This document shows positions 1-35,501 of a stretch of 64,000 nt of DNA, one piece after another (the stretch's first letter is position 1; the number at the start of each line of letters is the position of its first letter). The position numbers were made by a program, and so were the translations under genes. The stretch is taken from NCBI GenBank assembly GCA_903861205.1, contig CAIOTC010000003.1, positions 7,964 through 71,963 of the forward strand, given 5' to 3'. The notes beneath the pieces were generated by a model. The model had not been told where the DNA came from. It saw only the letters and a list, made by a program, of their open reading frames with translations, and ran no database searches. Source of the stretch: an uncultured bacterium. GTDB taxonomy: Bacteria > Patescibacteriota > Minisyncoccia > Phycocordibacterales > DATDWN01.

Positions 1-112
1 AGTTGAGGGTAAAAATAAAAAGGTGAAAGTTATCAAGGAGAAGATAAAAGAAGAACCGGTCAAAAAGTCCATAAAGTCAAAAGTCCATAAAGAAAAAACC
101 AAAAAAAATTAA
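1..112 (+). CDS. 3' end of upstream CDS (lysine-rich tail ...KKVKVIKEKIKEEPVKK...; position upstream of rpsC suggests rplV/L22), partial
   Basis: Open frame 2 from the window edge to TAA at 110-112; synteny of the S10 operon places L22 before S3. Confidence 0.35.
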   Translation, partial: VEGKNKKVKVIKEKIKEEPVKKSIKSKVHKEKTKKN

Positions 113-156
113 CTTTATAAACTTTAAGGACTTTATAGACTTTAGACTAAAAAAAC
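60..156. repeat. Family-E 'ataaagtc/gacttta' palindromic intergenic element
   Basis: Second copy at 1331-1425. Confidence 0.5.
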
Positions 157-816
157 ATGACCCACACCGTACATCCATATTCCCATAGACTTGGCATCAC
201 GAGAGACTGGAAGTCCCGCTGGTTTGGCGTCAAAGCAAAGTACAAAGATTTTTTGAAAAGCGATGTGTTACTGCGAGAATATCTGGAAAAGCGTTTTCGC
301 GGTTTTTATGTCAGCAATATTGAAATGGAACGCGGAGAAAAAGTTTTGCGCATTGTGATCGAATCGTCTCGCCCGGGTATGATCATTGGCCGAAGCGGGG
401 AAGGCGCGGTTAAACTGCGACAGGACATTTTGGCATTCTTGGCAAAGAACAAATTGTCAGCCGAAGGCGATGTCAAAATCGATATCAAAGAAATTAAATC
501 GCCGGAATCAAACGCGTCGATCGTGGCTCAAATGATCGCCGACGGTTTGGAAAAAAGATTACCTTTCCGACGCGTGACCAAGCAGACAGCCGAAAAAGTG
601 ATGGCCAACAGAGACGTGGAAGGTGTCAAAATCGAATTGTCCGGACGACTTGGCGGTGCATCGATGGCGCGTCAGGAGAAATTGAAACGTGGCCGAATTC
701 CTTTGCAGACTTTCCGAGCGGATGTCGATTTCACAAAATACGAGGCGCGATTGCCGTATGGCGGAATAGGAATAAAGGTTTGGATATATAGAGGAGAGAT
801 ATTTAGTAAAAAATAA
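157..816 (+). CDS. rpsC: 30S ribosomal protein S3
   Basis: 219 aa with the N-terminal KH-like S3 signature (HPYSHRLGITRDWKSRWF); position before L16. Confidence 0.95.
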   Translation: MTHTVHPYSHRLGITRDWKSRWFGVKAKYKDFLKSDVLLREYLEKRFRGFYVSNIEMERGEKVLRIVIESSRPGMIIGRSGEGAVKLRQDILAFLAKNKLSAEGDVKIDIKEIKSPESNASIVAQMIADGLEKRLPFRRVTKQTAEKVMANRDVEGVKIELSGRLGGASMARQEKLKRGRIPLQTFRADVDFTKYEARLPYGGIGIKVWIYRGEIFSKK

Positions 817-913
817 AAAGTTGAATAAGTTTAATAAGTTGAATAAGTCAGGAAATGCAGAAAAACTTATACAACTTATTAAACTAAAGCGAAGCGTAAC
901 TTATTAAACTACA

Positions 914-1330
914 ATGCTTGTCCCCAAAAAAGTAAAATTCAGAAAGTGGCAGACCATGCGAAAAAATCCGGCTAAAGTCGGCACGGCTTCGCGCGGAGCG
1001 ACAATTTCCTTTGGTTCATACGCGCTCAAGGCGTTGCAGGGAATGCGCATCAGATCAAACCAGGTTGAAGCTGCCAGAAAAGTTCTTTCGCGAGCATCAG
1101 GCAAGACTGGCAAGATTTGGATTCGCATTTTTCCCGATATGCCGTATACTCAGAAGCCGGCCGAGGTTAAGCTGGGCAAGGGTAAGGGTGATTTGGCGGG
1201 ATACGTGGCGGCGGTCAAACCCGGCACCATTCTGTTTGAAATCGACGGTGTGACCGAGGCTATCGCGCGCGAAGGTTTGCGAAAGGCCGGCACAAAATTA
1301 CCGCTGAAGACGAAAATCATAAGCAGATGA
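914..1330 (+). CDS. rplP: 50S ribosomal protein L16
   Basis: MLVPKKVKFRKWQ... 138 aa, canonical L16 N-terminus. Confidence 0.95.
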   Translation: MLVPKKVKFRKWQTMRKNPAKVGTASRGATISFGSYALKALQGMRIRSNQVEAARKVLSRASGKTGKIWIRIFPDMPYTQKPAEVKLGKGKGDLAGYVAAVKPGTILFEIDGVTEAIAREGLRKAGTKLPLKTKIISR

Positions 1331-1425
1331 AGTCATAAAGTCCATATAAAGTCAAAAGTCTATAAAGAAATTCAGAATTCACTTTACAGACTTTAAGGAC
1401 TTGATAGACTTTTAACTTAAATTCA

Positions 1426-1617
1426 ATGAAAATCGCAGAATTAAACAAAAAAACAGAAAAAGAGTTGCAGACGCTTCTTACCGAAAAGAGCTTGGCTTTG
1501 CGCGCTTTTCGATTCAGCATTGCCGGCAGCAAGACACGAAACGTCAAAGAGGGAGCTGCGCTGAAAAAAGATATTGCTCGCATCAAGACGATATTTAATT
1601 CAAAAAAACATGAATAA
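1426..1617 (+). CDS. rpmC: 50S ribosomal protein L29
   Basis: 63 aa MKIAELNKKTEKELQ..LL; position L16-L29-S17. Confidence 0.9.
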   Translation: MKIAELNKKTEKELQTLLTEKSLALRAFRFSIAGSKTRNVKEGAALKKDIARIKTIFNSKKHE

Positions 1618-1855
1618 AGAAATTAAAAATGCCGGCAAGATTCTTTCCGGAGTTGTCGTTTCAGACAAAATGAAAGACACCTCTACGGTCAAAGTTTCGC
1701 GATTCGTCAAACATCCGAAGTACGGCAAGTTTTTGAAAGTGGACAAAAAATACAAAGCACACGATCTCGGCAATACCAAAAAAATCGGTGACAAGGTGGA
1801 AATACAGGAATGCGCGCCAATTTCAAAGGATAAACATTTTAAAATAGTTGAATAA
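1610..1855 (+). CDS. rpsQ: 30S ribosomal protein S17
   Basis: Internal ATG of ORF 1574..1855; MNKEIKNAGKILSGVVVSDKM...VKHPKYGKF S17 signature. Confidence 0.9.
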   Translation: MNKEIKNAGKILSGVVVSDKMKDTSTVKVSRFVKHPKYGKFLKVDKKYKAHDLGNTKKIGDKVEIQECAPISKDKHFKIVE

Positions 1856-1935
1856 GTTTGAAAAGTTGAATAAGGAAATACAGAAAACTTATACAACTTA
1901 TTAAACTAAAGCGAAGCGTAACTTATAAAACTAAC

Positions 1936-2307
1936 ATGATACAACCGCGATCCATCGTTAAAATAGCAGACAACTCCGGAGGCCTGATCGGACGTATTTT
2001 CAAAGTGCTCGGAAGTTCAAAGAAAAGATATGCTTCGATAGGCGAGATGGTTGTTTTGTCCGTTCAGAAAGCCCAGCCGCGAAAAACGACCAAGAAAAAA
2101 GACGTTTTGTACGCCGTGGTTGTCCGCCAAAAAGCGCCTTTCCGCCGAAAAGACGGTTCATACATTCGCTTTGACGAAAATGCTGTGGTTATCGTCCTGA
2201 AAGACAAGAAGGAACCGGTAGCCGGACGAGTTTTCGGACCGATTCCGCGCGAGATTGGCGAAGTGGGATATCAGAAAATTATTTCTTTAGCTCCCGAAGT
2301 CGTCTAA
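1936..2307 (+). CDS. rplN: 50S ribosomal protein L14
   Basis: MIQPRSIVKIADNSGG... 123 aa. Confidence 0.95.
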   Translation: MIQPRSIVKIADNSGGLIGRIFKVLGSSKKRYASIGEMVVLSVQKAQPRKTTKKKDVLYAVVVRQKAPFRRKDGSYIRFDENAVVIVLKDKKEPVAGRVFGPIPREIGEVGYQKIISLAPEVV

Positions 2308-2413
2308 GAAACAATTTTATAATTTTTAATTTAGAATTTTTAATGAATGTTTAAATTTAAAAATTCAAAAATTGAAAATTCATTTTAAATTAAAAATTCT
2401 AAATTAAAAATTT
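2308..2413. repeat. Family-A AT-rich palindromic intergenic element (..aatttttaatgaatgtttaaatttaaaaattcaaaaattgaaaattcatt..aaaattctaaattaaaaatt)
   Basis: Copies at ~6808-6922, 7853-7966, 8552-8658, 9096-9205, 12069-12176, 19430-19530, 32095-32177, 33693-33754, 35908-36009, 43465-43500, 44790-44820. Confidence 0.6.
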
Positions 2414-2629
2414 ATGCATGTTAAGAAAGATGACAACGTAATAGTTCTGACCGGCAAAGACAAGGGCAAAAAAGGCGCTGTGGTCAAAGCGTTCCCGAAA
2501 GAAAACAGAGTCGTTGTTTCCGGAGTCAATATTTTGAAAAAACATCAGAGACCGACCAAGTCCGGACAAAAAGGCCAGATTATCGAAAAGACGATGCCGA
2601 TACATGCGAGCAATGTAAGGAAAGTTTAG
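2414..2629 (+). CDS. rplX: 50S ribosomal protein L24 (short form, KOW domain only)
   Basis: [21 protein letters not shown]... matches the L24 N-terminus but lacks ~30 C-terminal residues. Confidence 0.85.
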
Positions 2630-2722
2630 AAAGTTGAATAAGTTTAAAAAGTTGAATAAGGAAAATGCAAGAAACTTATACAACTTATTAAACTAAAGCG
2701 AAGCGTAACTTATTAAACTACA

Positions 2723-3256
2723 ATGCAAACCATCAAAGAAAAAACAAAAGAATCGTACGGCGCGCTCAAGGCTGATTTCGGCTATAAAAACATCATGCAA
2801 TCGCCGAAAATCGAAAAGGTTATTGTTTCGGCCGGTGTCGGATCTTTCAAGGACAAGAAAAAAATCGATCTGGCTTTTGATCGACTTTCCAAAATCACCG
2901 GCCAGCGTCCCGTCAAAAAAGGCGCCAAGCAATCGGTGGCTTCTTTCAAAGTTCGCGAAGGTGACGTTGTAGGTTTGCAGGTTACTTTGCGAGGTCAGCG
3001 AATGTACGATTTTCTTGATCGCTTGATAAACATCTCACTTCCACGAACAAAAGACTTCCGCGGTATTTCTCCAACAGGCATCGACGAAATGGGCAACTAC
3101 ACCCTCGGTATCAAAGAGAACACTATTTTCCCGGAATCGTCCGATGAGGAACTGAAAGACGTTTTTGGTCTGGCTGTCACTGTCGTCACCAGCATTCGCG
3201 ACAAAAAAGAAACAAGAGCGTTTTTGACACACCTCGGATTTCCGTTCAAGAAGTAA
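2723..3256 (+). CDS. rplE: 50S ribosomal protein L5
   Basis: 177 aa, L5 signature; follows L24. Confidence 0.95.
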   Translation: MQTIKEKTKESYGALKADFGYKNIMQSPKIEKVIVSAGVGSFKDKKKIDLAFDRLSKITGQRPVKKGAKQSVASFKVREGDVVGLQVTLRGQRMYDFLDRLINISLPRTKDFRGISPTGIDEMGNYTLGIKENTIFPESSDEELKDVFGLAVTVVTSIRDKKETRAFLTHLGFPFKK

Positions 3257-3297
3257 AAACTTCCAAATTTCACCAATCTCATCGTCTAAAATAATAT

Positions 3298-3348
3298 CCT
3301 GATCCGTCAATGTACCCACTGTACACCTCCGGCTCAGGATTTTATTTT
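3298..3348 (+). terminator. Candidate rho-independent terminator after rplE
   Basis: Inverted repeat cctgatccg...ccggctcagg followed by attttatttt. Confidence 0.4.
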
Positions 3349-3398
3349 ATACGCGACCTTGGCGAAATTATGAAAATTTTTAGTCCGTGGTGACTTAA

Positions 3399-3426
3399 AA
3401 AACCGCTAAACATGGCGGTTTTTGCG
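3399..3426 (+). terminator. Hairpin/terminator T2 (aaaaaccgctaaacatggcggttttt), copy 1
   Basis: Stem aaccgc/gcggtt plus T-run; a near-identical copy lies at 5078-5108. Confidence 0.5.
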
Positions 3427-3455
3427 TATAAGACTTTACTTTTGAACGATAGTTG

Positions 3456-3464
3456 TGGTATAAT
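3456..3464 (+). promoter_or_regulatory. Extended -10 promoter (TGgTATAAT) for gene 3506-4216
   Basis: Read directly: tgtggtataat ~40 nt upstream of the start. Confidence 0.4.
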
Positions 3465-3505
3465 ACATATAGATCCATACCTCGCTACAAACCATTAAAC
3501 CGGTT

Positions 3506-4216
3506 TTGGAAGACGAAGAGTATAGGATGTTGGAGTTTGAAATGCTCACAGATCCGTTGTTCAACGTTTTTGTCGGAGTCGTCGCCCTCGGCGCGTTCCT
3601 GGCTTCTCTCTGGATGATTCGAGAGGCTTACCGGACCTCTGTCCGCTATTACCGCGAATTTTTTGTTTGGCGCCCGGTACGACGCCGTGGAGAGGAGATG
3701 GTCCGTCGAGCCAAGTTTTATGTTCAAATTCATGGTCCGCTCGCGGTCCAAAACAAGGCCAAGAAAGGGGTCACGGCGGTTGCGCGTTACGACAAGTTCA
3801 ACGCGAGACTGCTTGAAGTTCTTCGCAGGGCCGCAGGCGCGCGTAATACGGAGCCGATGTGCCAACGGGTGTTTGTAGATGTGGTCCCCACATTCACATT
3901 CGCTGATAACGAAGCGGTTCATTTTCCAGCACACACAGGTCTGAAAAGAGACATTGACGATCTAATGAGCTGGATTGTCGCTAAAATAACGGATATCGGT
4001 AAGGCAGAGGTTGACAAGAGAAGCTATGAAGAGGCAGTTTTGATTCTCGCAGTTCGTGATCAGCGATTACTGATACCGTTTGAGTACGAAGAACCGTTGC
4101 ACACCGTTGAGGGCGAGTTCAAGAAGTTTGGTGGCACAACACTTCAGCAAGCGGAGGAGCAGTTTGTACCTCCTTTTCCCAACACTAGCACGTTTGACAC
4201 CTCCGCGGACGAATAG
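3506..4216 (+). CDS. Hypothetical protein with an N-terminal TM helix; GC-rich cargo gene inside the ribosomal operon
   Basis: 236 aa ORF; GC clearly above its surroundings; own promoter and terminator. Confidence 0.6.
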   Translation: MEDEEYRMLEFEMLTDPLFNVFVGVVALGAFLASLWMIREAYRTSVRYYREFFVWRPVRRRGEEMVRRAKFYVQIHGPLAVQNKAKKGVTAVARYDKFNARLLEVLRRAAGARNTEPMCQRVFVDVVPTFTFADNEAVHFPAHTGLKRDIDDLMSWIVAKITDIGKAEVDKRSYEEAVLILAVRDQRLLIPFEYEEPLHTVEGEFKKFGGTTLQQAEEQFVPPFPNTSTFDTSADE

Positions 4217-4222
4217 AGAACC

Positions 4223-4259
4223 AGCCGGTGGTCCCTCGCGGGGTCGCCGGCTTTTCATT
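4223..4259 (+). terminator. Rho-independent terminator T1 (agccggtggtccc-tcgc-ggggtcgccggct + T-run), copy 1
   Basis: 13-bp stem including G-U pairs, so strand-specific for +; identical copy at 5688-5726. Confidence 0.6.
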
Positions 4260-4352
4260 TGACTTTAGCTCACTTAAATATTAAGTTTATCCACACTTAC
4301 ACATTTCTAATCATTGAATTTTCATGGGTGTATGGGATAATTAAAACAACAA

Positions 4353-4847
4353 ATGGAGCAAAAACTCAATATAAATAAATATAAAAACGCTCTCGTGTAT
4401 TTGATAGATAAATGTGGAAATGAAAAATTGGGCATCATGAAGCTCAATAAAATTTTCTATTACATGGATTTTATTTCATATCGCGACCGCGGTTTGACTG
4501 TGACTGGCGAAACTTACGTTCATCTTCCAAAAGGACCATTTGCAGATTCTTTGCAAAGTGTGATTTTGCCTCTGGCGGAAAAAGAAAATCTGGTGGAACA
4601 AAAAGAGGATATCAGTGAAAAATTTGGCAAACGAAACAGATTTAAAGCTCTCAAAAAACCAGACATGTCGCTTTTTGATGACTACGAAAAGAAATTGCTG
4701 GAGTACTTGTGCGTGACATTCAAGGATTGGACAACAGATCAAATGGTTGCCCAAACTCACACAGAAGCGCCGTGGGTTTTTTCCAAACCGAGCAAATCTC
4801 TGGATTATAATAATGCTGATGATATAGAATTCTTTGCCAATAATTAA
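4353..4847 (+). CDS. Panacea-domain (DUF4065 / SocA-like antitoxin, phage-associated) protein
   Basis: N-terminal ...GIMKLNKIFYYMDFISYRDRG.TVTGETYVHLPKGPF pattern typical of DUF4065. Confidence 0.55.
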   Translation: MEQKLNINKYKNALVYLIDKCGNEKLGIMKLNKIFYYMDFISYRDRGLTVTGETYVHLPKGPFADSLQSVILPLAEKENLVEQKEDISEKFGKRNRFKALKKPDMSLFDDYEKKLLEYLCVTFKDWTTDQMVAQTHTEAPWVFSKPSKSLDYNNADDIEFFANN

Positions 4848-4859
4848 TTTATTTCCACT

Positions 4860-5081
4860 ATGTCTTGGTCTGTACAGAGAACGGAAAGTTTCGACAAGTG
4901 GTGGAAAAAAGAGGGAATAGAAGATAAAAACTATGAGTATCACGAGCGGGCGCTCACGGAATTTCAAAATATTCCGTTGCCTCATCAGATGCAGAGTTGC
5001 GTATTTAAGAATAGCAGTTTTGAATGCTGGGTTACTCGATTGCCTGACAAAGATCTCGCAAAAGAATTTATGGAAGCTTAA
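4860..5081 (+). CDS. Small hypothetical protein adjacent to the Panacea gene; possible toxin partner
   Basis: 73 aa ORF 12 nt downstream in the same transcription unit; no recognisable family. Confidence 0.35.
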   Translation: MSWSVQRTESFDKWWKKEGIEDKNYEYHERALTEFQNIPLPHQMQSCVFKNSSFECWVTRLPDKDLAKEFMEA

Positions 5082-5108
5082 AAACCGCTCAACATGGCGG
5101 TTTTTACG
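5078..5108 (+). terminator. Hairpin/terminator T2, copy 2 (aaaaaccgctcaacatggcggttttt)
   Basis: Near-identical to 3399-3426. Confidence 0.5.
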
Positions 5109-5116
5109 TGTTTTGA

Positions 5117-5145
5117 TTGACAAATAGATATAAAGGGAGTATAAT
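5117..5145 (+). promoter_or_regulatory. Consensus sigma70-type promoter TTGACA-17-TATAAT
   Basis: ttgaca(5117-5122), 17-nt spacer, tataat(5140-5145), ~80 nt upstream of ORF 5226. Confidence 0.55.
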
Positions 5146-5225
5146 ATAAGCGAAACATGAATTGGGGCATGTATGGACTCCAATCGCCGTCGGGCGTTAA
5201 ATAGATCATTGAAAGAGGTAGAGAA

Positions 5226-5657
5226 ATGATGGATTGTATTTTGGCAGTGATGATGGCGATTGTCGCTTTCATCACAGGTTGGATTCTGGCCGGCATAAAC
5301 ATCAGACGGCAGAAAAAGACAGACCGGGCGGAACATAGAATCGAAAATACCCAACGCAACATCGGCAACCGCGTTTGCAATGCCTTGAATGATGCGGCGG
5401 ACCAAAACCCAGAAGCTCACTTAAGAGCGAAGACCATCTTCTGTAATGGTGGTGAGGTCTACCGCGTCTACCTGTCTTTTGATTTTAGTGGTGCTGATCT
5501 TCTGCTGGTGGACATCGATCCTCGGCAGTCGGTACCCATCACGGTCTTTTTCAACAAAAGCAGGCTGGAAAAGTATTATGATATCACCGAAGGGGATCTT
5601 GTAAGACTCATCCAGATGCTTCAAGAGTTCGTGGTGAATTACTCGCCCGAACGCTAG
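5226..5657 (+). CDS. Hypothetical protein with an N-terminal TM helix; second GC-rich cargo gene
   Basis: 143 aa; hydrophobic N-terminus; perfect promoter upstream and T1 terminator downstream. Confidence 0.55.
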   Translation: MMDCILAVMMAIVAFITGWILAGINIRRQKKTDRAEHRIENTQRNIGNRVCNALNDAADQNPEAHLRAKTIFCNGGEVYRVYLSFDFSGADLLLVDIDPRQSVPITVFFNKSRLEKYYDITEGDLVRLIQMLQEFVVNYSPER

Positions 5658-5687
5658 AGCAACTGACTTACGCCAGCTCAGTTATTC

Positions 5688-5726
5688 AGCCGGTGGTCCC
5701 TCGCGGGGTCGCCGGCTTTTTTGTGG
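5688..5726 (+). terminator. Rho-independent terminator T1, copy 2
   Basis: Identical 30-nt hairpin to 4223-4252, followed by tttttt. Confidence 0.6.
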
Positions 5727-5758
5727 GTGAAAGTGGCACTAAACAAGAATAAATTCCA

Positions 5759-5994
5759 GAGGTTCGACCTTAATGCCCAATTTCCCAAGGTCGAACCTCG
5801 GATGCGGGTGCAAAGTCACCACTAAACAAAATCTCGTACTGACATCTTTTCGGCAACTCCGCAGTGTCGCGAGCCGGTCTTGTCAACGACCCAGCCTTCG
5901 GGGCTGGGCTCATTGACAAGTCGCGACCGAGGACGGTAACAAACTTTTCGCTGGAAAAGTTTGTGGTGACGAAAAGATGTCAGTACGAGATTTT
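5759..5994 (+). other. Highly structured ~240-nt element (nested long hairpins) at the right boundary of the insertion, upstream of the S14 gene
   Basis: 11-bp hairpin 5759-5769/5789-5799; 25-bp perfect stem 5828-5852/5970-5994 enclosing a 62-nt hairpin 5866-5927 (7+8+7 bp stems, ttcg loop). Confidence 0.5.
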
Positions 5995-6060
5995 GTGTTG
6001 ACTTTTCAAGTCACTTTTGGTAGTCTTACCACAGCTTGAAAAAGCTTCGTTTTTGTAAAT

Positions 6061-6246
6061 ATGGCTAAAACATCTGTAAAAGCACGAGCTCGCAAAACAC
6101 CGAAATTCTCAACTCGGGCTGTTAACCGATGTTTCCGATGCGGACGAAAGCACGCTTTCATGCGAGACTTCGGTCTTTGCAGAATCTGCTTCCGCGAGCT
6201 GGCCAATGAGGGGAAGATTCCGGGGGTTAAGAAATCAAGTTGGTAG
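6061..6246 (+). CDS. rpsN: 30S ribosomal protein S14 type Z (zinc-binding, 61 aa)
   Basis: [48 protein letters not shown]; four Cys. Confidence 0.9.
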
Positions 6247-6360
6247 ATACGAAATAACGAATAAATTACGAATGGCTACGAATAAGGAATACAAAGCATT
6301 TCATTCGTTGCAATTCGTAGACCCATTCGTTACTTCGTATATTAAACAAGTTCGTTCTAG
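6246..6360. repeat. Family-D 'tacgaat' palindromic intergenic element
   Basis: Related copies at 15486-15597, 15793-15904, 27480-27520, 44128-44172. Confidence 0.55.
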
Positions 6361-6418
6361 CAAGTCAGCGGTTAAAAACCAAAGATACTGCTAAAATATA
6401 ATACACACAACAAAAGAA

Positions 6419-6805
6419 ATGGATCCAATTTCAGACATGATTATCCGAATAAAAAACGCCTCAGATTCAAAGAAGGAGTCTGTGGTTTTTCCATATTCAA
6501 AAATGAAGCTCGCTATTCTCGACACTTTGATGAAAAGCGGTTTTGTGGTTTCGTTCGGCAAGAAAGGCAAAAAGGTGGTCAAATTCATCGAAGTTGTTTT
6601 GGCTTATGAAAACGGCGAACCGAAAATTCATGGCGTGCAGAGAATTTCCAAAACATCAAAGCGAGTTTATCAGAAAGCCAAGGACATCCGCTCGGTCAGA
6701 AATGGTTTCGGCGCTTTGATATTGTCAACACCGAAAGGAATCATTACGGACAAAATGGCCAGAACGGATAAGGTTGGAGGGGAAGCACTCTTTAAAATTT
6801 GGTAA
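6419..6805 (+). CDS. rpsH: 30S ribosomal protein S8
   Basis: MDPISDMIIRIKNA... 128 aa. Confidence 0.95.
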   Translation: MDPISDMIIRIKNASDSKKESVVFPYSKMKLAILDTLMKSGFVVSFGKKGKKVVKFIEVVLAYENGEPKIHGVQRISKTSKRVYQKAKDIRSVRNGFGALILSTPKGIITDKMARTDKVGGEALFKIW

Positions 6806-6922
6806 TTTTAAAGAAATTTTCAATTTTTAATTTAAAATTTTCAATGAATTTCCAATTTAAAAATTTAGAAATTTAAAATTCAATAAAAATTAAAAATTCT
6901 AAATTAAAAATTATTCAAAATC

Positions 6923-7456
6923 ATGAGCAGAATCGGAAAAAAAGTAATAGCCATACCGGAAAAAACAGAAGTAACTTTTGCTTCGGGTGTTTTGACTGTC
7001 AAAGGTCCGCTCGGAACTCTTTCTCGAAGTTTGAAATCGGACATTTCGGTCAACATCACTCCAAAGGAAATCACCTTGGAACCGGTCAAGAAAACACTGG
7101 ACACGAACGCTTTGTGGGGAACATACGCTTCGCTTATTATAAATATGGTAGAGGGGGTAGGCAAAGCTTTTGTCAAAAAGGTTATTTTGGAAGGCATCGG
7201 CTACAAATCGGAAGTCAAAGGAAGTGATTTGGTTTTGGCTCTCGGTTTTTCACATCCTGTTAAAGTTGCCATTCCTACAACGCTTAAGGTGACAGCGGAA
7301 AAGAATACAATCACCATTAGCGGAATCGACAAGGAAGCGGTGGGAGAATTTGCCGCTAGTCTGCGAGCACTGAAAAAACCGGAACCGTACAAAGGTAAGG
7401 GATTTAGATACGAAGGAGAAATCATAAAGAGAAAGCAGGGTAAGAAAACAGCGTAA
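6923..7456 (+). CDS. rplF: 50S ribosomal protein L6
   Basis: MSRIGKKVIAIPEKTEVTF...VKGPLG. Confidence 0.95.
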   Translation: MSRIGKKVIAIPEKTEVTFASGVLTVKGPLGTLSRSLKSDISVNITPKEITLEPVKKTLDTNALWGTYASLIINMVEGVGKAFVKKVILEGIGYKSEVKGSDLVLALGFSHPVKVAIPTTLKVTAEKNTITISGIDKEAVGEFAASLRALKKPEPYKGKGFRYEGEIIKRKQGKKTA

Positions 7457-7497
7457 AATAGAGGTTGGAGAGAAGAGACTAGAGATTAGAAAATACA

Positions 7498-7848
7498 ATG
7501 CAAAATTCAAAATCCAAAACAGAACAGAGAATACGACGCAAGGCGCGAATACGAGCCAAGATTTCGGGCACCAAGGAAATGCCACGACTTTCCGTTTTCA
7601 AATCAAACAGATACATTTCTGCTCAGATTATCGATGACGGATCTTCTGTTACGCTTGCTTCTTCACATTCCAAAACAGCAAAAGGCAAAACGCTTTTGGA
7701 GAAATCAGTTGGCGTGGGAAGCGACATTGCAGCCCAAGCCAAAGCCAAGAAAATTACCAAGGTAGTTTTCGATCGCGGAGGATTCAGATACACGGGGGCG
7801 GTCAAGGCAGTCGCAGAGGGAGCAAGGGAAGGAGGATTAATTTTTTGA
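7498..7848 (+). CDS. rplR: 50S ribosomal protein L18
   Basis: RIRRKARIRAKISGT...PRLSVFKSNRYISAQIIDD. Confidence 0.9.
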   Translation: MQNSKSKTEQRIRRKARIRAKISGTKEMPRLSVFKSNRYISAQIIDDGSSVTLASSHSKTAKGKTLLEKSVGVGSDIAAQAKAKKITKVVFDRGGFRYTGAVKAVAEGAREGGLIF

Positions 7849-7969
7849 TTACAAAAAATAATTTCTAATTTTTAATTTAAAATTTTTAATGAATGTCTAA
7901 ATTTAAAAATTGAATCAATTAAAATTCATTAAAAATTCAAAAATTAAAAATTAAAAATTTTTACAAACA

Positions 7970-8551
7970 ATGGAACCAGAAATACAAAAAGAAATAACAA
8001 CAGAAGCTCCGAAAGTGGACGCCAGTCGTCCTATGGATTTTCGTGGTGGGGAAAGAGGGGGATTTAGAAAAAATACTCGCAAGGGTCCACCTCGTCGCGA
8101 AGCTCGAGTCAAGCCGGAATTCGACCAGAAAATCATTAGCATTCGCCGAGTGACTCGCGTGGTTACCGGAGGACGACGATTCAGCTTTTCCGTCGGTATT
8201 GTTATCGGTGACAGAAAGGGACGCGTTGGTGTCGGCCAAGGCAAAGCGGGGGATACTCCTATCGCCATCGACAAAGCTGTGCGAAACGCCAGAAAAAATA
8301 TGATTACGGTCAAAATGACCAAGAACGGTTCCATTCCGCATGACGTGGAGGCAAAATACTCGGCATCGAGAGTGCATATCATGCGCGCTCCTGGCAAGGG
8401 AATTTTGGCCGGCTCAAGCGTTCGAACAGTTTTGGAATTTGCAGGACTGAAAGAAGTTAGCGCCAAAATATTTTCACGAAGCAAAAATAAAGTGAACAAC
8501 GCACAAGTGGCGATCAAGGCGCTGGGGATGCTGAAAACAGGAAACAAATAA
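7970..8551 (+). CDS. rpsE: 30S ribosomal protein S5
   Basis: RRVTRVVTGGRRFSFSVGIVIGDRKGRVGVGQGKA S5 signature. Confidence 0.95.
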   Translation: MEPEIQKEITTEAPKVDASRPMDFRGGERGGFRKNTRKGPPRREARVKPEFDQKIISIRRVTRVVTGGRRFSFSVGIVIGDRKGRVGVGQGKAGDTPIAIDKAVRNARKNMITVKMTKNGSIPHDVEAKYSASRVHIMRAPGKGILAGSSVRTVLEFAGLKEVSAKIFSRSKNKVNNAQVAIKALGMLKTGNK

Positions 8552-8659
8552 TTTAAAATTTATAATTTAGAATTTAAAATGAATTTAAAATTTCAAAATT
8601 GAATCAATGAAAATTCATTAAAAATTAAAAATTTTAAATTAAAAATTTCTTAAACTATC

Positions 8660-9094
8660 ATGCAACTGAACAATTTAAAAAGATTACATAAGAACAAAAA
8701 GACTCGGCAAATCGGCCGGGCTGGTCAGCGTGGAAAAACATCTGGACGCGGTACGAAAGGTCAGAACGCTCGCGCCGGACACAAAAAGCGACCGGAAATT
8801 CGCGATTTTATAAAGCGTTTGCCAAAAATGCGCGGACGAGGCAAAAATCTGAACACGAGTATAGAGACAAAACCGACGGTCATAAACTTGCGAGATCTTT
8901 CCGTTTTCAAAGCGGGCGAGGTTGTTTCTCCGGAGACGCTTGCTACAAAAAAAATAATTACAAAACTGGATGCCAGCCGTGGCGTCAAAATCCTTTCTGT
9001 CGGAGCAGTGACCGCCAAACTGACTATTTCAAAATGCTCTCTTTCGGCAGGAGCCAGAAAAGCGGTAGTGGATGCGGGAGGGGAAGTGAAGTAA
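8660..9094 (+). CDS. rplO: 50S ribosomal protein L15 (no L30 gene precedes it)
   Basis: MQLNNLKRLHKNKKTRQIGRAGQRGKTSGRGTKGQ. Confidence 0.9.
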   Translation: MQLNNLKRLHKNKKTRQIGRAGQRGKTSGRGTKGQNARAGHKKRPEIRDFIKRLPKMRGRGKNLNTSIETKPTVINLRDLSVFKAGEVVSPETLATKKIITKLDASRGVKILSVGAVTAKLTISKCSLSAGARKAVVDAGGEVK

Positions 9095-9205
9095 AAACAA
9101 TTTAAAATTTATAATTTAAAATTTTTAATGAATGTCTAAATTTAAAAATTGAATCAATGAAAATTCATTAAAAATTAAAAATTCTAAATTAAAAATTATA
9201 TTGTC

Positions 9206-10477
9206 ATGTCCAATTTTCTTAACAAACTATCTCTCATCTTCCAGGACAAAATTCTACGCAAAAGAATATTTTTCACTCTTTCTGCTTTGATTGTTTTTCG
9301 CGCGCTTGCTGCTATTCCGATTCCGGGTATTGACCACACTAAACTGGCATCATTTTTCTCCGGCAATGAATTCTTTGGATTACTGAACGTCTTTTCCGGA
9401 GGCGGACTTTCGCAATTCTCCATCATCATGCTCGGCGTGGCGCCTTACATTACCGGTTCGATTATCATGCAGCTCTTGACCATCATGTCGCCGAAGCTCA
9501 AGGCGATGTACCAGGAGGAAGGCGAAGCGGGCCGACGAAAATTTGCTCAGTGGGGACGACTTTTGACCGTTCCGCTGGCGCTTATCCAAGGTTTCAGCTT
9601 CATCAAAATTTTGCAAAGCCAAGGAGCTCTTTTGCCTCTTTCCACTTCAGCTTTGATTTCTGATTTGCTTATCATTACCGCCGGCTCGGTTCTGCTCATG
9701 TGGATTGGCGAGCTTATTTCCGAATACGGCATCGGCAACGGCGTTTCACTCATCATCTTTGCCGGTATCGTCTCCAGAATTCCGACAAGCGTCGGCCAAC
9801 TGCTTTACACGTTTGATCCGGCCCAGATTCCGTTTTACCTGGCGCTTTTGGTTGTCGGCGCGATTGTCATCATTGGTGTGGTTATCATTACCGAAGCCGA
9901 GCGCCCAATACCGGTGACGTACGCCCGCCAAGTTCGCGGCAACAAAGTTTACGGCGGCACATCGACCTATCTGCCGCTCCGCATCAACCAAGCCGGAGTT
10001 ATTCCGATTATTTTTGCTTCGTCCATACTTTTGTTTCCTCAAATGATTGTCCGATTTTTGCAAAACTCCAGCCACGCCATAATTCAATCGATTTCAAAAG
10101 TCGTATTGGCAGTTTTGGCGAACACCTGGTTTTACGGCATCGCTTACTTCCTTTTGGTTTTTGTCTTTACATATTTCTACACAGCCGTCACTTTTGATCC
10201 TGATCAGATTTCGACCAACTTGCAGAAAAACGGCGCCTTCATTCCCGGTGTTCGTCCTGGTAAATCCACTTCCGAACACATTGCCACCATTCTGACGCGA
10301 CTGACGCTTGTTGGCGCGCTCTTTCTCGGTGTTATCGCCGTCTTTCCGATCGTGGTCAAAAACATTACCGGCATCACAGCTATCTCCGTCGGAGGTACGG
10401 CGCTCCTGATTGTTGTCTCTGTCGTCATCGATCTTATTAAAAAGATTGACGCGCAAGTTTCTATTAGGGAGTATTAG
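9206..10477 (+). CDS. secY: Preprotein translocase subunit SecY
   Basis: 423 aa polytopic membrane protein after L15; conserved SecY N-terminus. Confidence 0.95.
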   Translation: MSNFLNKLSLIFQDKILRKRIFFTLSALIVFRALAAIPIPGIDHTKLASFFSGNEFFGLLNVFSGGGLSQFSIIMLGVAPYITGSIIMQLLTIMSPKLKAMYQEEGEAGRRKFAQWGRLLTVPLALIQGFSFIKILQSQGALLPLSTSALISDLLIITAGSVLLMWIGELISEYGIGNGVSLIIFAGIVSRIPTSVGQLLYTFDPAQIPFYLALLVVGAIVIIGVVIITEAERPIPVTYARQVRGNKVYGGTSTYLPLRINQAGVIPIIFASSILLFPQMIVRFLQNSSHAIIQSISKVVLAVLANTWFYGIAYFLLVFVFTYFYTAVTFDPDQISTNLQKNGAFIPGVRPGKSTSEHIATILTRLTLVGALFLGVIAVFPIVVKNITGITAISVGGTALLIVVSVVIDLIKKIDAQVSIREY

Positions 10478-10625
10478 AACAATTTCCAAATAACAATTTC
10501 CAATTTCCAATAAATTTTTCAATATTCCAATGAATCAAATACAATTCTTTGGAATTTTTTGGAAATTGATCCATTGATTAATTCATTGAAAATTGTAAAT
10601 TGGAAATTGAAAATTATTAGTGCTA
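10478..10625. repeat. Family-C palindromic intergenic element (ttccaatttccaatgaat...attcattggaaattgaaaatt)
   Basis: Copies at ~13075-13210, 30720-30835, 31948-32040, 37080-37195. Confidence 0.6.
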
Positions 10626-10635
10626 TTATTTTCTC

Positions 10636-11226
10636 ATGTCTCCACACACATTTATTTTCATGGGTCAGTCAGGAAGCGGGAAAGGTGAGCAAACCAGACT
10701 CATTCAAAAAGTTTTGAAAGAAAAAGATCCGAACGGAGAGATTTATTATTTGGAGACCGGAAATAATTTCAGAAAGTTTGTTTCTGGTGAAAGTTATTCA
10801 AGCAAGCTGTCAAAATCAGTTGCGGAAGAAGGTAAGCTTCAGCCGGCATTTCTAGCCGTGTATTTTTGGTCCGAAAATCTGATAAATAATTTGAAAAACA
10901 ATGAGCACTTGATATTTGATGGAATTTGCAGACGCATTGAGGAAACGCAAGTGTTTACCACAGCAATGGGATTTTACGACAGGAAACCCATTGTTATTTA
11001 CGTAAAAGTTTCCAGAAAATGGGCGACAGATAGGCTCCTTAGTCGCGGAAGAGCAGACGATGTGGATATGAAGCAACTCAATGGGCGTTTGGATTGGTTC
11101 GAGGAATTTACATTGCCAGTTATTGAATATTTCAAAACGAACGACAGATACACTGTGCTGGAAATAAATGGCGAACAGACCATAGAGGAGGTGCATGCCG
11201 AAATAATAAATAAATTAGATTGGTAG
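10636..11226 (+). CDS. adk: Adenylate kinase-like P-loop nucleoside monophosphate kinase (divergent)
   Basis: GQSGSGKGEQ P-loop; secY-adk-map synteny; sequence is diverged. Confidence 0.6.
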   Translation: MSPHTFIFMGQSGSGKGEQTRLIQKVLKEKDPNGEIYYLETGNNFRKFVSGESYSSKLSKSVAEEGKLQPAFLAVYFWSENLINNLKNNEHLIFDGICRRIEETQVFTTAMGFYDRKPIVIYVKVSRKWATDRLLSRGRADDVDMKQLNGRLDWFEEFTLPVIEYFKTNDRYTVLEINGEQTIEEVHAEIINKLDW

Positions 11227-11237
11227 TTTTCTGTCAT

Positions 11238-11300
11238 CCCCGCGAAGGCGGGGATCTAGATTACTCAATAATCATGGATTCCCGCCTTCGCGGGAATGAC
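11238..11300. repeat. GC-rich double-hairpin palindromic repeat (gtcatccccgcgaaggcggggat ... attcccgccttcgcgggaatgac)
   Basis: Two ~23-nt arms, each internally palindromic; related copy at 23550-23620. Confidence 0.45.
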
Positions 11301-11308
11301 AAAATAAA

Positions 11309-12076
11309 ATGATTACAACAAAAACTTCTGAGGAAATCGAAATTTTGAAGGAAGGTGGTCATCGCCACGCTTTTATTTTAGGCGAGTTGGCCAAAAAAGC
11401 GGCGGTGGGAGTTTCGACACAGGAGTTGGAAGATTTGGCGCGTGAGCTGATAAAAGAAGGCGGGGGCACACCGGCTTTTTTGAATTACACTCCGCGTGGA
11501 GCCAAGCGGCCGTATCCGGCGGCGCTTAACGTTTCCATTAACGACGAAATTGTTCACGGTATTCCGAACGAAGATCCGAAAATTTTGCAGGACGGCGATG
11601 TTGTTTCGCTTGATCTGGGGCTTGTTCACCAAGGCATGATTACCGATAGCGCTATCACGGTTGGCGTTGGTGACATTTCCGAGGAAGACAGGAAAATGAT
11701 TTTGCATTGCCAGGAAGCGCTCTCGATTGGCATCAAAGCGGCTAGAGGTGGCGGCAAAGTGGGGGACATTAGCAGTGCCATTGAAGTTTTTGTACGACCT
11801 CTCGGTTACGGTATTCCTGACGGCTTGGCAGGCCACGGTGTCGGCTACAAGGTTCACGAGGAGCCATTTGTGCCTAACGAGGGGGCAAAGGGCAAAGGCG
11901 AGCTATTGCGTCCCGGTATGGTTCTGGCGATTGAGCCAATGATCACGCTTGGTTCCTCACGCATTGTCCTGTCCGGCGACGGTTACACCTACAAAACAGC
12001 CGATGGTTCGCGCGCCGCTCATTTCGAGCATACGATAGTGATCACGGATGGAGAAGCGATAATACTTACAAAATAA
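11309..12076 (+). CDS. map: Type I methionine aminopeptidase
   Basis: 255 aa; conserved metal-binding regions (DLGLVHQGM, HGVGY..HE). Confidence 0.95.
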   Translation: MITTKTSEEIEILKEGGHRHAFILGELAKKAAVGVSTQELEDLARELIKEGGGTPAFLNYTPRGAKRPYPAALNVSINDEIVHGIPNEDPKILQDGDVVSLDLGLVHQGMITDSAITVGVGDISEEDRKMILHCQEALSIGIKAARGGGKVGDISSAIEVFVRPLGYGIPDGLAGHGVGYKVHEEPFVPNEGAKGKGELLRPGMVLAIEPMITLGSSRIVLSGDGYTYKTADGSRAAHFEHTIVITDGEAIILTK

Positions 12077-12176
12077 TTTTCAATTTTTAATTTAGAATTT
12101 TTAATGAATATCTAAATTTTAAAATTTAATAATTGAAAATTCATTAAAAATTAAAAATTTTAAATTAAAAATTTAT

Positions 12177-12779
12177 ATGCATCCAAAATTTGAACGTACA
12201 CTTGTTATTATAAAACCCGATGGAGTACAGAGAAGTTTGATCGGCGAAATCATTGGCAGGTTTGAAAAGCTTGGCTTGAAAATGGTGGCAGCCAAAATGT
12301 GCGTGCCAACAGCAGAACATGTTGAAAAACATTACACTCTTGATCCCGAATGGCGCAGAATTACAGGAGAAAAAAGAGTCAAAGCGGCCAAAGAAAAAGG
12401 AGAAAAACTTGCGACGGAAGACCCTTTTGAAATTACAGCAAAAATTTTGGAAGTTTTGATAAAATACATGACATCAGGGCCAGTGGTAGCAATGGTTTGG
12501 CAGGGCGCGCACGCCACTGAATTGGTCAGAAAAATTGTCGGAGGCACGGAACCGCGAAGTTCTGATGTTGGCACAATTCGCGGAGATTATGTTCTTGATT
12601 CGTATGTAATGGCAGACACGGACAGCAGAGCTATCAGAAATCTAGTCCATGCTTCCGGCACAGCCAAAGAATCCGAGGCGGAAATAAAACACTGGTTTAA
12701 AGATGACGAAGTTCTCGACTACAAACTTGTTCAGGAATCTATTCTCTACGATGTAAACCTTGACGGCATATTTGAATAA
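12177..12779 (+). CDS. ndk: Nucleoside diphosphate kinase (with a C-terminal extension)
   Basis: ERTLVIIKPDGVQRSLIGEIIGRFE; 200 aa versus the usual ~140. Confidence 0.9.
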   Translation: MHPKFERTLVIIKPDGVQRSLIGEIIGRFEKLGLKMVAAKMCVPTAEHVEKHYTLDPEWRRITGEKRVKAAKEKGEKLATEDPFEITAKILEVLIKYMTSGPVVAMVWQGAHATELVRKIVGGTEPRSSDVGTIRGDYVLDSYVMADTDSRAIRNLVHASGTAKESEAEIKHWFKDDEVLDYKLVQESILYDVNLDGIFE

Positions 12780-12787
12780 TTAGTAAA

Positions 12788-12867
12788 GGAAGCAGCAGCA
12801 TAATAATTTTCCTCGGCTCCGCAGGAGATGGAGGTCGGTCGAGGAAAATTATTATGCTGCTGCTTCC
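12788..12867 (+). terminator. Long perfect hairpin after ndk (28-bp stem)
   Basis: ggaagcagcagcataataattttcctcg and its exact reverse complement, separated by 24 nt. Confidence 0.4.
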
Positions 12868-13227
12868 TTCCTTGCATCTTCATTTCGGCGGAAGTATAAT
12901 CGAGGTAGGGTTACATGATTTTTCTTTCTAAACATTTTTAAGGGAGTCTCATATTTGTGTATTATGGCGAGCGCTTGTCGTTCCGATTGATACATTTGCG
13001 GACACCCACCTAGTATTTTTCTAGGGGAAACTCATGTAGCTCTACTAAAAAACTCCGCTTTGGCGGAATTTTTTAAATTTCCAATTTCCAATTATCAATT
13101 TCCAATGAATGATTCAATTAACCAATTTCCAAAAAATAAAATAGTCCTGTTTGATTTATTGTGGCATTGAAAAATTTATTGGAAATTGGAAATTGATAAT
13201 TGGAAATTGTTGGGGTATTATTACCCA

Positions 13228-13629
13228 ATGATGTCCCAGAGACTTTTCAAACGAGCTTTTTTGGTACTGCTAGTAACGGCTGTTTTGAATTGGTTTGTAA
13301 GCATGATGTATTTACACTGGACCATTTGGTGGATTGATATTATTTTGCATTTTTTGGGTGGTCTTTCTGTGGCATTATTCTTTTTGTGGTTTTGCGCGAC
13401 AAAGTTTGATTTGAAAAATTGGAGTTCGCGTAAAATTTTGTTTGCAGTTTTGGGTTGTGTGATTTTGGTCGGTGTCTTGTGGGAATTGTATGAATTATAT
13501 TTTGGTCTGACATTTCTCTCCGACGGTTTGAGCTATTTTGCCGACACATTTTCGGATTTGATAATGGATGTTGTAGGCGGGTTGACTGGATTTCTTTACA
13601 TTCAACTTCTTTTGAAAAATAATGAGTAA
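13228..13629 (+). CDS. Hypothetical polytopic membrane protein
   Basis: ~4 predicted TM helices; internal ATG of ORF 13186..13629. Confidence 0.45.
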   Translation: MMSQRLFKRAFLVLLVTAVLNWFVSMMYLHWTIWWIDIILHFLGGLSVALFFLWFCATKFDLKNWSSRKILFAVLGCVILVGVLWELYELYFGLTFLSDGLSYFADTFSDLIMDVVGGLTGFLYIQLLLKNNE

Positions 13630-15477: not shown

Positions 15478-15485
15478 AAAATTAA

Positions 15486-15597
15486 TATACGAATATGCGA
15501 ATAAATACCAATCTACGAATGGCTACGAATGGGAACGTGATGTTTTGAATTATTCGCATTCATTCGCATCATTCGTCCATTCGCATATTCGTATGTT
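15486..15597. repeat. MITE-like 112-bp element with 16-bp terminal inverted repeats (atacgaatatgcgaat...attcgcatattcgtat), copy 1
   Basis: 100% identical to copy 2 at 15793-15904; tacgaat-family motifs. Confidence 0.6.
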
Positions 15598-15785
15598 TAA
15601 CTTTTAATATAAAACGCTCTATCCTTATTGCTAATCGGCCACTCGGCGCTGCGATTTTTGGCCATCTGATTTCTAGAACTTTCTTTCGTATTGAAATGAT
15701 TTTGACCGGTTCTGCGGGCAATGATTTTGCCGTTCTTGGTCACTTTCAATCGTTTGGTAAATGATTTGTTTGTTTTTGTTGACAT
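15597..15785 (-). CDS. rpmI: 50S ribosomal protein L35
   Basis: 62 aa lysine/arginine-rich, L35-like; infC-rpmI-rplT order. Confidence 0.9.
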   Translation of the reverse strand: MSTKTNKSFTKRLKVTKNGKIIARRTGQNHFNTKESSRNQMAKNRSAEWPISNKDRAFYIKS

Positions 15786-15792
15786 GATGATA

Positions 15793-15904
15793 CGAATATG
15801 CGAATAAATACCAATCTACGAATGGCTACGAATGGGAACGTGATGTTTTGAATTATTCGCATTCATTCGCATCATTCGTCCATTCGCATATTCGTATGTT
15901 TAAC
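15793..15904. repeat. MITE-like 112-bp element, copy 2
   Basis: Identical to 15486-15597; lies between infC and rpmI. Confidence 0.6.
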
Positions 15905-19422: not shown

Positions 19423-19556
19423 ATACTAAAATACAATTTAAAATTTTTAATTTAGAATTTAAAATTAATTTAAAAATTGAATCATTGAAAATTCAATAAA
19501 AATTAAAAATTTTAAATTAAAAATTATTCTTGCATTCTCGCATCAGAGTGCCAAAT

Positions 19557-30676: not shown

Positions 30677-30835
30677 GAAGATATTATACAATGAGTGAAT
30701 ATGGTATACTATATTAATAATTTTCAAGTAACAATTTCCAATTTTCAATAAATGAATCAATTTTTCAATTGGACAATTGGTTCATTGAGAAATTCATTGG
30801 AAATTGAAAATTGCTAATTGGAAATTTTTTCAAAA

Positions 30836-31945: not shown

Positions 31946-32177
31946 TTTCCAATTTTCAATTTCCAATGAATTTTTCAATTGGACAATTGGCTCATTGAGA
32001 AATTCATTGGAAATTGAAAATTGCTACTTGAAATTTTTTGTGTATAACTTGCATAGTTTTTTGTTTTAACTTGCTGTATAATTTACATGAGTAAAAATAA
32101 TTTAAAATTTAAAAATTTGTCATTCAAAATTCATTTTAAATTTTAAATTCTAAATTTTAAATTAAAAATTTTTTTCC

Positions 32178-35488: not shown

Positions 35489-35501
35489 TATAATAAAAAC
35501 A

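Follow-up and report, generated by a model that had tools for sequence, protein, structure and literature searches.

Family B, a palindromic repeat that recurs between genes in a 64,000-nt stretch of DNA from an uncultured bacterium (contig CAIOTC010000003.1; the whole stretch is hereafter called the window), is best explained, with a probability of about 0.6, as a non-autonomous foldback repeat of ~90 nt that resembles MITEs (miniature transposable elements with inverted repeats) and repetitive extragenic palindromes (REPs) and is tolerated in the stop-to-start junctions of a lineage translating without Shine-Dalgarno (SD) sequences. The window has a GC content of 42%, comes from a member of the Paceibacteria (Parcubacteria; candidate phyla radiation, CPR), and begins within the S10-spc ribosomal protein cluster; the S3 proteins most closely related to its own, among named organisms, are those of Zambryskibacteria/Paceibacterota metagenome-assembled genomes (MAGs). 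On the evidence of sequence comparison, family B is shown to have been copied recently within this Paceibacteria genome, to be present in other Paceibacteria at different sites, and to occupy intra-operon stop-to-start junctions. As a foldback repeat family of Paceibacteria it is new, and it comes nearest in type to the REP/BIME (bacterial interspersed mosaic element) repeats and to bacterial MITEs. By analogy, it additionally shows a read-through like that of Rickettsia palindromic elements (RPEs) and a stop-start position like that of mycobacterial interspersed repetitive units (MIRUs). Literature searches for such repeats in CPR/Patescibacteria returned nothing relevant.

A preliminary description of this DNA had reported nearly identical elements of ~95 nt before rplP, rplN, rplE, and gatA, and this observation holds. 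With up to one mismatch allowed, the + strand has four occurrences of the 26-mer CTAAAGCGAAGCGTAACTTATTAAAC (at 884, 1906, 2693, and 48586), against none in 100 shuffles, and AAGTTGAATAAG-like units number 15 against 0.65 expected, every one of them within the four elements. The downstream open reading frames (ORFs) have N-termini typical of L16, L14, L5, and GatA. Copy 1 (817-913; like the other three, on the + strand) makes up the whole spacer from rpsC (stop 814-816) to rplP (ATG 914); its units at 818-829, 827-838, and 836-847 are followed by an apical loop (848-865), inverted units (866-884), and a 3' module (884-909, with GCGAAGC at 889-895), from which the linker taca (910-913) leads to the start codon. 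Copy 2 (1843-1935) lies between rpsQ and rplN (ATG 1936), with units at 1845-1856 and 1863-1874, the first enclosing the rpsQ stop codon TAA (1853-1855), an inverted unit at 1888-1899, the module at 1906-1931 (one mismatch; GCGAAGC at 1911-1917), and the linker taac. Copy 3 (2630-2722) extends from rplX (stop TAG 2627-2629), whose stop codon is overlapped by a degenerate unit-like AAGTTTAGA, to rplE (ATG 2723); its units are at 2631-2642 and 2649-2660, its inverted unit at 2675-2686, and its module at 2693-2718 (GCGAAGC at 2698-2704), again with a taca linker. Copy 4 (48517-48616), found in all retrieved assemblies of the species, separates gatC (stop 48514-48516) from gatA (ATG 48617) and contains units at 48525-48554 together with a degenerate one, an inverted unit at 48568-48579, the module at 48586-48611 (GCGAAGC at 48591-48597), and the linker ttgta. 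A fifth copy occupies the rplW-rplB spacer of the same genome, directly upstream of the window (L017), and the five copies are 88-98% identical to one another.

The overall shape of family B is a long imperfect hairpin. Its 5' arm comprises two to four 9-nt units (AAGTTGAAT/AAGTTTAAT), rather than the two per element first described, and is followed by a loop of 13-18 nt; the 3' arm runs from inverted units CTTATACAA-CTTATTAAAC through an inserted TAAAGCGAAGCGTA to a final inverted unit ACTTATTAAACT. Common to all copies is an invariant 3'-arm module, CTAAAGCGAAGCGTAACTTAT, of 21-26 nt with a GCGAAGC mini-hairpin. The elements do not, as had been proposed, reach exactly to the ATG: a variable linker intervenes, 4-5 nt long in the window copies and 7 nt in the fifth. 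No less close is the link of the 5' end to the stop codon of the preceding gene, as it lies 0-2 nt past this TAA/TAG or, in copy 2, overlaps it. In being small, multicopy, devoid of coding capacity, and bounded by inverted-repeat ends (AGTTGAATAAGT and ACTTATTAAACT), family B has these characteristics of a MITE.

Comparison with relatives adds the presence/absence pattern typical of such elements. The same operon was collected from further genomes by way of S3 homologues, and in five of them (L022, L024, L026, L027, and L033; S3 88-90% identical) the family B sites are short spacers without SD sequences, measuring 9-63 nt between rpsC and rplP, 6-19 nt between rpsQ and rplN, 6-20 nt between rplX and rplE, and 4-27 nt between rplW and rplB; these relatives provide empty orthologous spacers of 1-32 nt. 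A search with a family B profile, which covered L022-L026, found zero copies. Throughout the relatives with an S3 identity of 87-91%, the family B sites are either short spacers (9-32 nt for rpsC-rplP, with the ranges above for the other three) or contain a different insert, and family B is present in none of them. For example, L028 (S3 87%) has members of another family, ACGAAT, in its rpsC-rplP, rplX-rplE, rplN-rplX, rplW-rplB, and rpsS-rplV spacers; these copies begin 2-3 nt past the stop codon and leave a native-looking spacer of 8-10 nt before the ATG. In L026, two spacers carry yet another hairpin family, and the rpsC-rplP spacer of L032 (S3 91%) holds a terminator-like hairpin with a TATAAT module.

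Family B itself reappears in other genomes. When a 20/21-mer of the element was searched exactly against 185,579 species genomes and the JGI metagenomes, 3 and 13 loci were recovered, respectively, and the 20-mer is present in genomes of 39-54% GC at non-orthologous sites. The Paceibacterota MAG SMAG_U8111 carries family B before rpmI, rpsC, and rplN, and on other contigs the element precedes rpsK and tsf. SMAG_U8111 is more distant from the window genome than the relatives with empty sites (S3 71%, L16 74%, L5 70%, and gene DNA 65-77% identical). Its copies are 77-83% identical to those of the window, far above the flanking gene DNA (65-77%), and at the one shared site, rpsQ-rplN, the copy is only 82% identical to its positional counterpart, no closer than to other copies. 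Since the copies cluster by genome, they point to recent within-genome amplification or concerted evolution rather than vertical inheritance of an ancient regulatory site. Horizontal transfer of rplN with its element was considered, L14 being 94% identical to that of SMAG_U8111, and rejected: the DNA is 77% identical, the same as for other relatives. The preliminary description had suggested, as one option, a mobile repeat that targets start codons. Its first half is borne out by presence/absence, clustering by genome, and conservation above that of flanking DNA; as for the second, occupation of stop-to-start junctions describes the sites better.

The setting is not uniform. In the higher-GC CPR contigs L003, L004, L005, and L007, the module lies beside the stop codon, such that the element is inverted with respect to its co-directional flanking genes. 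In L010 and L014, the module is joined to a different 5' part and the subsequent ATG belongs to no confirmed gene, and in L006 no ORF is called after the element in its orientation, the nearest ORFs being on the opposite strand. The elements of L005 sit between metabolic genes; that family B is seen beside ribosomal genes is therefore a matter of which operons happen to fall in the window. A phage origin finds no support in a blastn search of phage genomes, which gave no match, or in viral contigs, which contain no exact 18-mer.

Family B shares the window with further foldback families, and nearly every intra-operon spacer there is a hairpin of ~60-160 nt. Along the stretch rplD-ndk, 16 of the 18 spacers hold one, drawn from five sequence families, and the window also contains one GC-rich hairpin. 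Family A, built of AAAGTCCAT units, has two copies, at 65-150 (rplV-rpsC junction, +) and 1331-1425 (rplP-rpmC). An AT-only family with 7-nt AATTTTT/AATTTAG units has at least eight full copies, among them one on the + strand at 2308-2413 (rplN-rplX) and others at 6806-6922, 7849-7969, 8552-8659, 9095-9205, 12077-12176, and 35907-36009, as well as one at 19423-19556 between the minus-strand genes smpB and tmRNA. The AATTTCC family is represented by five copies in mixed orientations, at 10478-10635 (secY-adk, +), 13070-13227, 30715-30835 (the 5' untranslated region, UTR, of pilM), 31946-32040, and 37078-37194, whereas the AT family keeps a single chromosomal orientation even between minus-strand genes. 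Two minus-strand elements of the ACGAAT family (15478-15596 and 15786-15899) flank rpmI in the infC-rpmI-rplT operon, and the intervals 15487-15603 and 15790-15906, in the infC-rpmI and rpmI-rplT spacers, are 100% identical over 117 nt. Directly after a hairpin-rich spacer lies a beta-CASP ribonuclease gene (13622-15031), a candidate processor of hairpin-punctuated transcripts; the best NCBIfam likeness of its product is to Cas14/aCPSF1-type models, far under their cut-offs.

How such insertions could persist follows, in outline, from the position of the elements. In a genome that is ~90% coding, the junctions would be almost the sole places where 95 nt can be added harmlessly. Translation in this lineage probably begins without SD sequences, from short A/U-rich spacers or leaderless 5' ends; because it does so, an insertion displaces no ribosome-binding site. 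At, or just into, the last codons of the upstream gene, an insertion would either terminate translation or be read through harmlessly as a lysine-rich tail, and self-folding of the insert may hold the stop and start codons close together in the mRNA. The adjacency to the ATG is accordingly due to native spacers being tiny, together with selection, and not to a start-codon signal. Active targeting of stop-to-start junctions by family B is possible.

The coding properties of the repeat fit this scheme. The unit AAGTTGAAT provides TGA and TAA in two frames while its third frame is open (K-L-N-K), and more TAA codons come from the 3' end; insertion at or slightly into a gene end should be harmless because of these stops and the open third frame. 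The L22 ORF of the window genome terminates (TAA 110-112) inside a family A element with a Lys-rich tail, and in SMAG_U8111 the L22 ORF (L002 2826-2927) crosses an entire family B element, its TAA lying 2 nt before the rpsC ATG. Likewise, the S17 protein of the window ends ...KIVE* by way of the TAA supplied by the element, and that of relatives ends ...KII*. A practical corollary is that hairpin repeats can mislead gene callers, whose ORFs extend into them.

The lack of an SD sequence, which the preliminary description had noted, is real but not specific to the genes behind the elements. Only 4 of 68 window genes are preceded by a GGAGG-type SD; thus, its absence before rplP, rplN, rplE, and gatA is a property of the organism and not of the element. 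The suggestion of a shared translational or processing signal is not supported: SD-less starts are general in the window and also occur in the element-free, 1-32-nt spacers of sister species, other hairpin families fill the same spacers, some copies are inverted or lack a confirmed gene start, and neither a promoter nor an Rfam match was detected. Specifically, nothing in the window reached the Rfam gathering score, and a search of 1-3300, which includes copies 1-3, also gave no match at E<=1. An intrinsic terminator was also rejected, as the stems are A/T-rich and followed by TAAAGCG, and the scan lists no terminator at the three copies it covered and canonical ones elsewhere in the window.

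Several observations weigh against a tolerated mobile repeat. Look-ups by S3 and GatC revealed no empty allele within the species, all assemblies carrying the elements, and no autonomous insertion sequence with family B ends bracketing a gene was found in the retrieved loci (~0.3 Mb). TAA/TA is present at both ends of the rplW-rplB and rpsQ-rplN copies and not of the other three; such TA flanks are uninformative as a target-site duplication because the sequence is so AT-rich. Many unrelated families sharing one architecture are hard to ascribe to one sequence-specific transposase. In all ten low-GC copies that precede identifiable genes (the five of the window genome and others), the module is on the ATG side, which neutral insertion does not predict. 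Finally, the same spacers have been filled repeatedly and independently, so the hairpin could instead be selected there.

These last two observations also speak for a selected cis-acting RNA device, in which the hairpin would join the upstream stop codon to the downstream AUG for SD-less reinitiation, serve as an RNase III or stabilizer site, or both, with the GCGAAGC module and its A/U-rich tail as a landing pad or leader. Such a device is considered unlikely. It would account for elements that run exactly from stop to start, with predicted stems that leave 2-5 nt per side in several copies, and the copy between smpB and tmRNA would suit a processing role. However, sister species manage with spacers of 1-32 nt that contain no hairpin, and four higher-GC copies are inverted relative to their genes. 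Elements also occur where translational coupling does not apply, namely between smpB and tmRNA, in the pilM 5' UTR (which lacks an upstream ORF), and in metabolic operons of higher-GC CPR genomes; at the first two of these sites, stop-start coupling therefore cannot be the purpose.

The predicted fold can be read both ways. It consists of an inner hairpin of 17-19 bp with a conserved A-A mismatch, a small GCGAAGC side hairpin, and an outer helix. Structure prediction together with the start codon, as the preliminary description had advised, supports the inner hairpin and leaves the start region partly unpaired (mean unpaired probability 0.31-0.76), in keeping with an RNA device; the outer helix, on which juxtaposition of stop and start would depend, is weak and inconsistently predicted. 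Compensatory substitutions affect 4 of the 17 pairs of the inner hairpin (U-A to G-C, G-C to U-G, and A-U to U-A), and the G-C to U-G change would be in keeping with pairing in RNA. These changes prove selection or propagation as a palindrome but do not reveal the level on which it acts. In a set of 24 window elements, the antisense RNA folds more stably than the sense RNA and has about twice the G-U pairs (65 versus 33), the opposite of what an RNA device predicts. This G-U bias is absent from a wider automatic set of 57 spacers that includes other spacer hairpins (204 versus 202), and for family B alone the strands are about equal in a G-U/A-C comparison (5 versus 3 cells, an uninformative difference). 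With the antisense strand more stable across the 24 elements and the strands of family B about equal, there is no sign that mRNA pairing is specially preserved.

A more specific version resembles ribosome shunting. With the stop codon and the AUG kept within a few nucleotides of each other by the hairpin, a 70S ribosome that terminates could cross ~95 nt and reinitiate; the GCGAAGC module would be a landing or processing site, and mobile hairpins would have been installed specifically at termination-reinitiation junctions. This model is judged slightly less probable still than an RNA device in general. Some role of family B in RNA processing or translational coupling is possible on these models, though improbable.

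As opposed to the RNA, the DNA form of the module offers a lead towards the mode of mobilization. The heptamer d(GCGAAGC) is an extraordinarily stable DNA mini-hairpin, its RNA counterparts are much weaker, and related mini-hairpins are found at primase-dependent or single-strand initiation sites (PMC13037366). By analogy, this stability may point towards recognition as folded single-stranded DNA, and the strand-asymmetric module and DNA-stable mini-hairpin suggest that a trans-acting enzyme, e.g., an HUH/Y1 transposase, would be the recognizing partner. The window offers a single candidate for a hairpin-DNA enzyme, a weak homologue of Y1 (IS200/RAYT-like) transposases encoded at 40992-41687 (+), which scores 23.2 bits with Pfam and 29.9 bits with the NCBIfam model REP_Tyr_transpos (cut-off 80 bits) and has no match in a PDB sequence search. 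No other transposase was identified in the window, where 13 ORFs were scanned against Pfam and NCBIfam. The Y1-like gene is flanked not by family B but by the palindrome TAGCAAGAACnGTTCTTGCTA (40942 and 41701); as far as its sequence goes, it shows that hairpin-DNA enzymes would be available in the genome, not that one moves family B. The 21-nt palindrome TAGCAAGAACnGTTCTTGCTA itself occurs five times against none expected (25585-25605, 27037-27057 with two mismatches, 40942-40962, 41476-41496, and 41701-41721); two of the copies border the Y1-like gene, and the other three fall within the coding sequences of recG, purN, and the Y1-like gene. As a REP-like element, the palindrome may be the partner of the Y1-like gene.

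The same stability invites a chromosomal function at the DNA level, with GCGAAGC on the lagging-strand template acting in single-strand initiation or priming, or as another replication-linked signal. All family B copies of the window are on the G-rich (leading) strand, and the constant orientation of the AT family along the chromosome would agree with such a function, as would the mini-hairpins at primase-dependent origins (PMC13037366). This explanation is nevertheless very improbable: relatives do without the elements altogether, the copies are confined to gene junctions and not spaced along the chromosome, and nothing links the module to primase. The orientation of family B is itself ambiguous, for the window copies are all both gene-sense and leading-strand, which makes orientation to replication inseparable from orientation to transcription.

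Transposition could also be dispensed with entirely. Palindromes might be made and homogenized in place by replication slippage or template switching, through tandem duplication of 7-9-nt units and subsequent palindromization, and then spread by gene conversion. In favor of slippage, each arm consists of very short units in tandem, in numbers that vary among copies; many sequence families have the one architecture; neither a target-site duplication nor a transposase partner was found; and native sequence beside some copies is unit-like (AAAGTTTAG at the rplX end). This origin is nonetheless doubtful, about as much so as the RNA device. Near-identical copies, loop and module included, lie 45 kb apart in unrelated operons, the same 20-mer is dispersed over non-orthologous sites in genomes of 39-54% GC, and gene conversion requires prior homology at the recipient site.

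The possibility that the 3' module is an outward-facing promoter, giving leaderless or near-leaderless mRNA of the downstream gene, arises from promoter-like boxes of the window. Several first genes have a TATAAT/TATTAT box 6-8 nt ahead of their ATG (40980-40985, 42591-42596, 35489-35494, 48202-48207, and upstream of 30676 on the minus strand; the start codons are at 40992, 42603, 35502, 48214, and 30676, respectively). Judged from sequence, these -10-like boxes close to the ATG and the rarity of SD sequences suggest that leaderless mRNAs may be widespread. In family B, the ATG is preceded at a like distance (6-7 nt) by TATTAA or TATAAA, and a different spacer module in relatives combines a consensus TATAAT with a GCT(T/C)CGC mini-hairpin. 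Yet position 6 of the family B hexamer is A instead of the critical T, there is neither a TG extension nor a -35 box, and a promoter and terminator consensus scan of 1-13300, hence of three family B copies, found no sigma-70-like promoter on their + strand. Furthermore, internal promoters are not needed in the conserved operons to which the genes concerned belong, and inverted copies exist. A promoter role is thus as remote as the replication-linked one.

Among known repeats, family B is most like the REP/BIME repeats of Enterobacteria, Pseudomonas, and Stenotrophomonas with their RAYT transposases. These, too, are short extragenic palindromes, which often lie within operons in the gap from a stop codon to the gene that follows; co-transcribed, multicopy, and species-specific, they can stabilize upstream mRNA, and a Y1-type homologue is present in the window. 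REPs, however, measure 20-40 nt and have a GTAG-type head, unlike the ~95 nt, 9-nt tandem units, and asymmetric module of family B. Membership in the REP/RAYT system was rejected, given the missing GTAG head and a Y1-like gene whose flanks are not family B. Bacterial MITEs such as the Correia elements of Neisseria, ERIC/IRU, and the pneumococcal RUP resemble family B as hairpin-forming, non-coding, gene-adjacent, and co-transcribed elements of 100-150 nt with terminal inverted repeats; Correia and ERIC are RNase III/E substrates that alter mRNA fate, and MITEs show presence/absence among strains. In contrast to them, family B has no demonstrable TA duplication or known parent insertion sequence, the entire element is one hairpin of sub-repeats, and it lies almost exclusively in the stop-start junctions of an SD-less organism.

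Other likenesses are partial. RPEs are ~100-nt palindromes that are readable in frame and add a harmless peptide, comparable to the L22 ORFs above, but they lie inside ORFs, whereas family B is at ORF ends or in spacers and extends C-termini only. MIRUs are intra-operon spacer repeats that overlap the upstream stop and downstream start and have been proposed to preserve translational coupling; unlike family B, they are tandem direct repeats with small ORFs and not foldback hairpins. The foldback (FB) transposons of Drosophila and other eukaryotes likewise have long inverted arms of short tandem sub-repeats in variable number, but they are kilobase-sized and the likeness is architectural only. 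Intercistronic RNase III sites of phage T7 are also hairpins between co-directional genes. With integron attC sites, family B has in common that structure rather than sequence is conserved, attC sites acting as folded single strands; an attC identity was rejected, as the core order RYYYAAC...GTTRRRY is absent and the family B ends GTTGAAT...ATTAAAC have the reverse order. Among the window ORFs, of which a minority were scanned, no tyrosine integrase was noticed. The TIGR (Tas) arrays of CPR bacteria and phages have 5-15 units with two alternating 8-12-nt repeats and 9-nt spacers, beside a Nop-domain Tas gene (PMC12045711). Family B was not assigned to them: it forms single dispersed hairpins of 2-4 identical units with no spacers, and its neighbors, ribosomal protein and gatC/gatA genes, do not resemble a Tas gene.

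CPR/Patescibacteria genomes are regarded as streamlined, and few known loci are as compact and conserved as ribosomal protein operons. Set against the 1-30-nt spacers of sister species, the 16 of 18 filled spacers offer a natural experiment on the invasion of essential operons by small repeats and on the translation of internal cistrons in bacteria that use neither SD sequences nor long leaders. If it were true that the hairpins are needed for reinitiation or mRNA punctuation, they would represent a new mode of operon expression.

The spacers of these genomes contain a second repeated module, TATAATCGCT(T/C)CGCTCATTAAAAATC, which combines a consensus -10 box with GCTTCGC, the complementary mini-hairpin. 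It was observed at L002 2022-2047 (before rpsS), at L002 ~5204-5229 (minus strand, after rplN), at L032 965-990 (before rplP), and in L004; two of these occurrences end 1-4 nt ahead of an ATG. Modules with a mini-hairpin may thus recur close to the starts of genes in this group of genomes. One short contig of the same species as the window (L021) ends within family B copy 1 and another (L020) starts within family A; hairpin repeats of this kind may break short-read or metagenome assemblies.

Further features of the window lie apart from family B. An insert of ~3 kb between rplE and the S14/S8 genes (3257-6205) contains ORFs without a Pfam match, duplicated terminator hairpins (4222-4255 and 5687-5720, 100% identical; 3398-3427 and 5080-5109, similar), and an inverted repeat, long and near-perfect, at ~5825-6000. 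A relative of the hairpin at 3257-3400 (ctcatcgtctaaaat...attttatacgcgac) is present at L002 3641-3787. From ~52 kb to the window end, the GC content drops to 33-39%. Here, a LAGLIDADG endonuclease-like ORF (52843-53529) lies between tRNA genes (52708-52778 and 53520-53591), and on the minus strand a large serine recombinase (53583-55190) is followed by an 812-aa ORF (55265-57703) with a primase-like N-terminus and no NCBIfam match; the region 52708-57703 is probably an integrated element. Finally, DnaA-box-like TTATC(C/A)AC sequences occur upstream of pilin genes (39062-39070, 39762-39769, and 40398-40405), those at 39762 and 40398 being ~30-40 nt upstream of a TGTATAAT -10 box.

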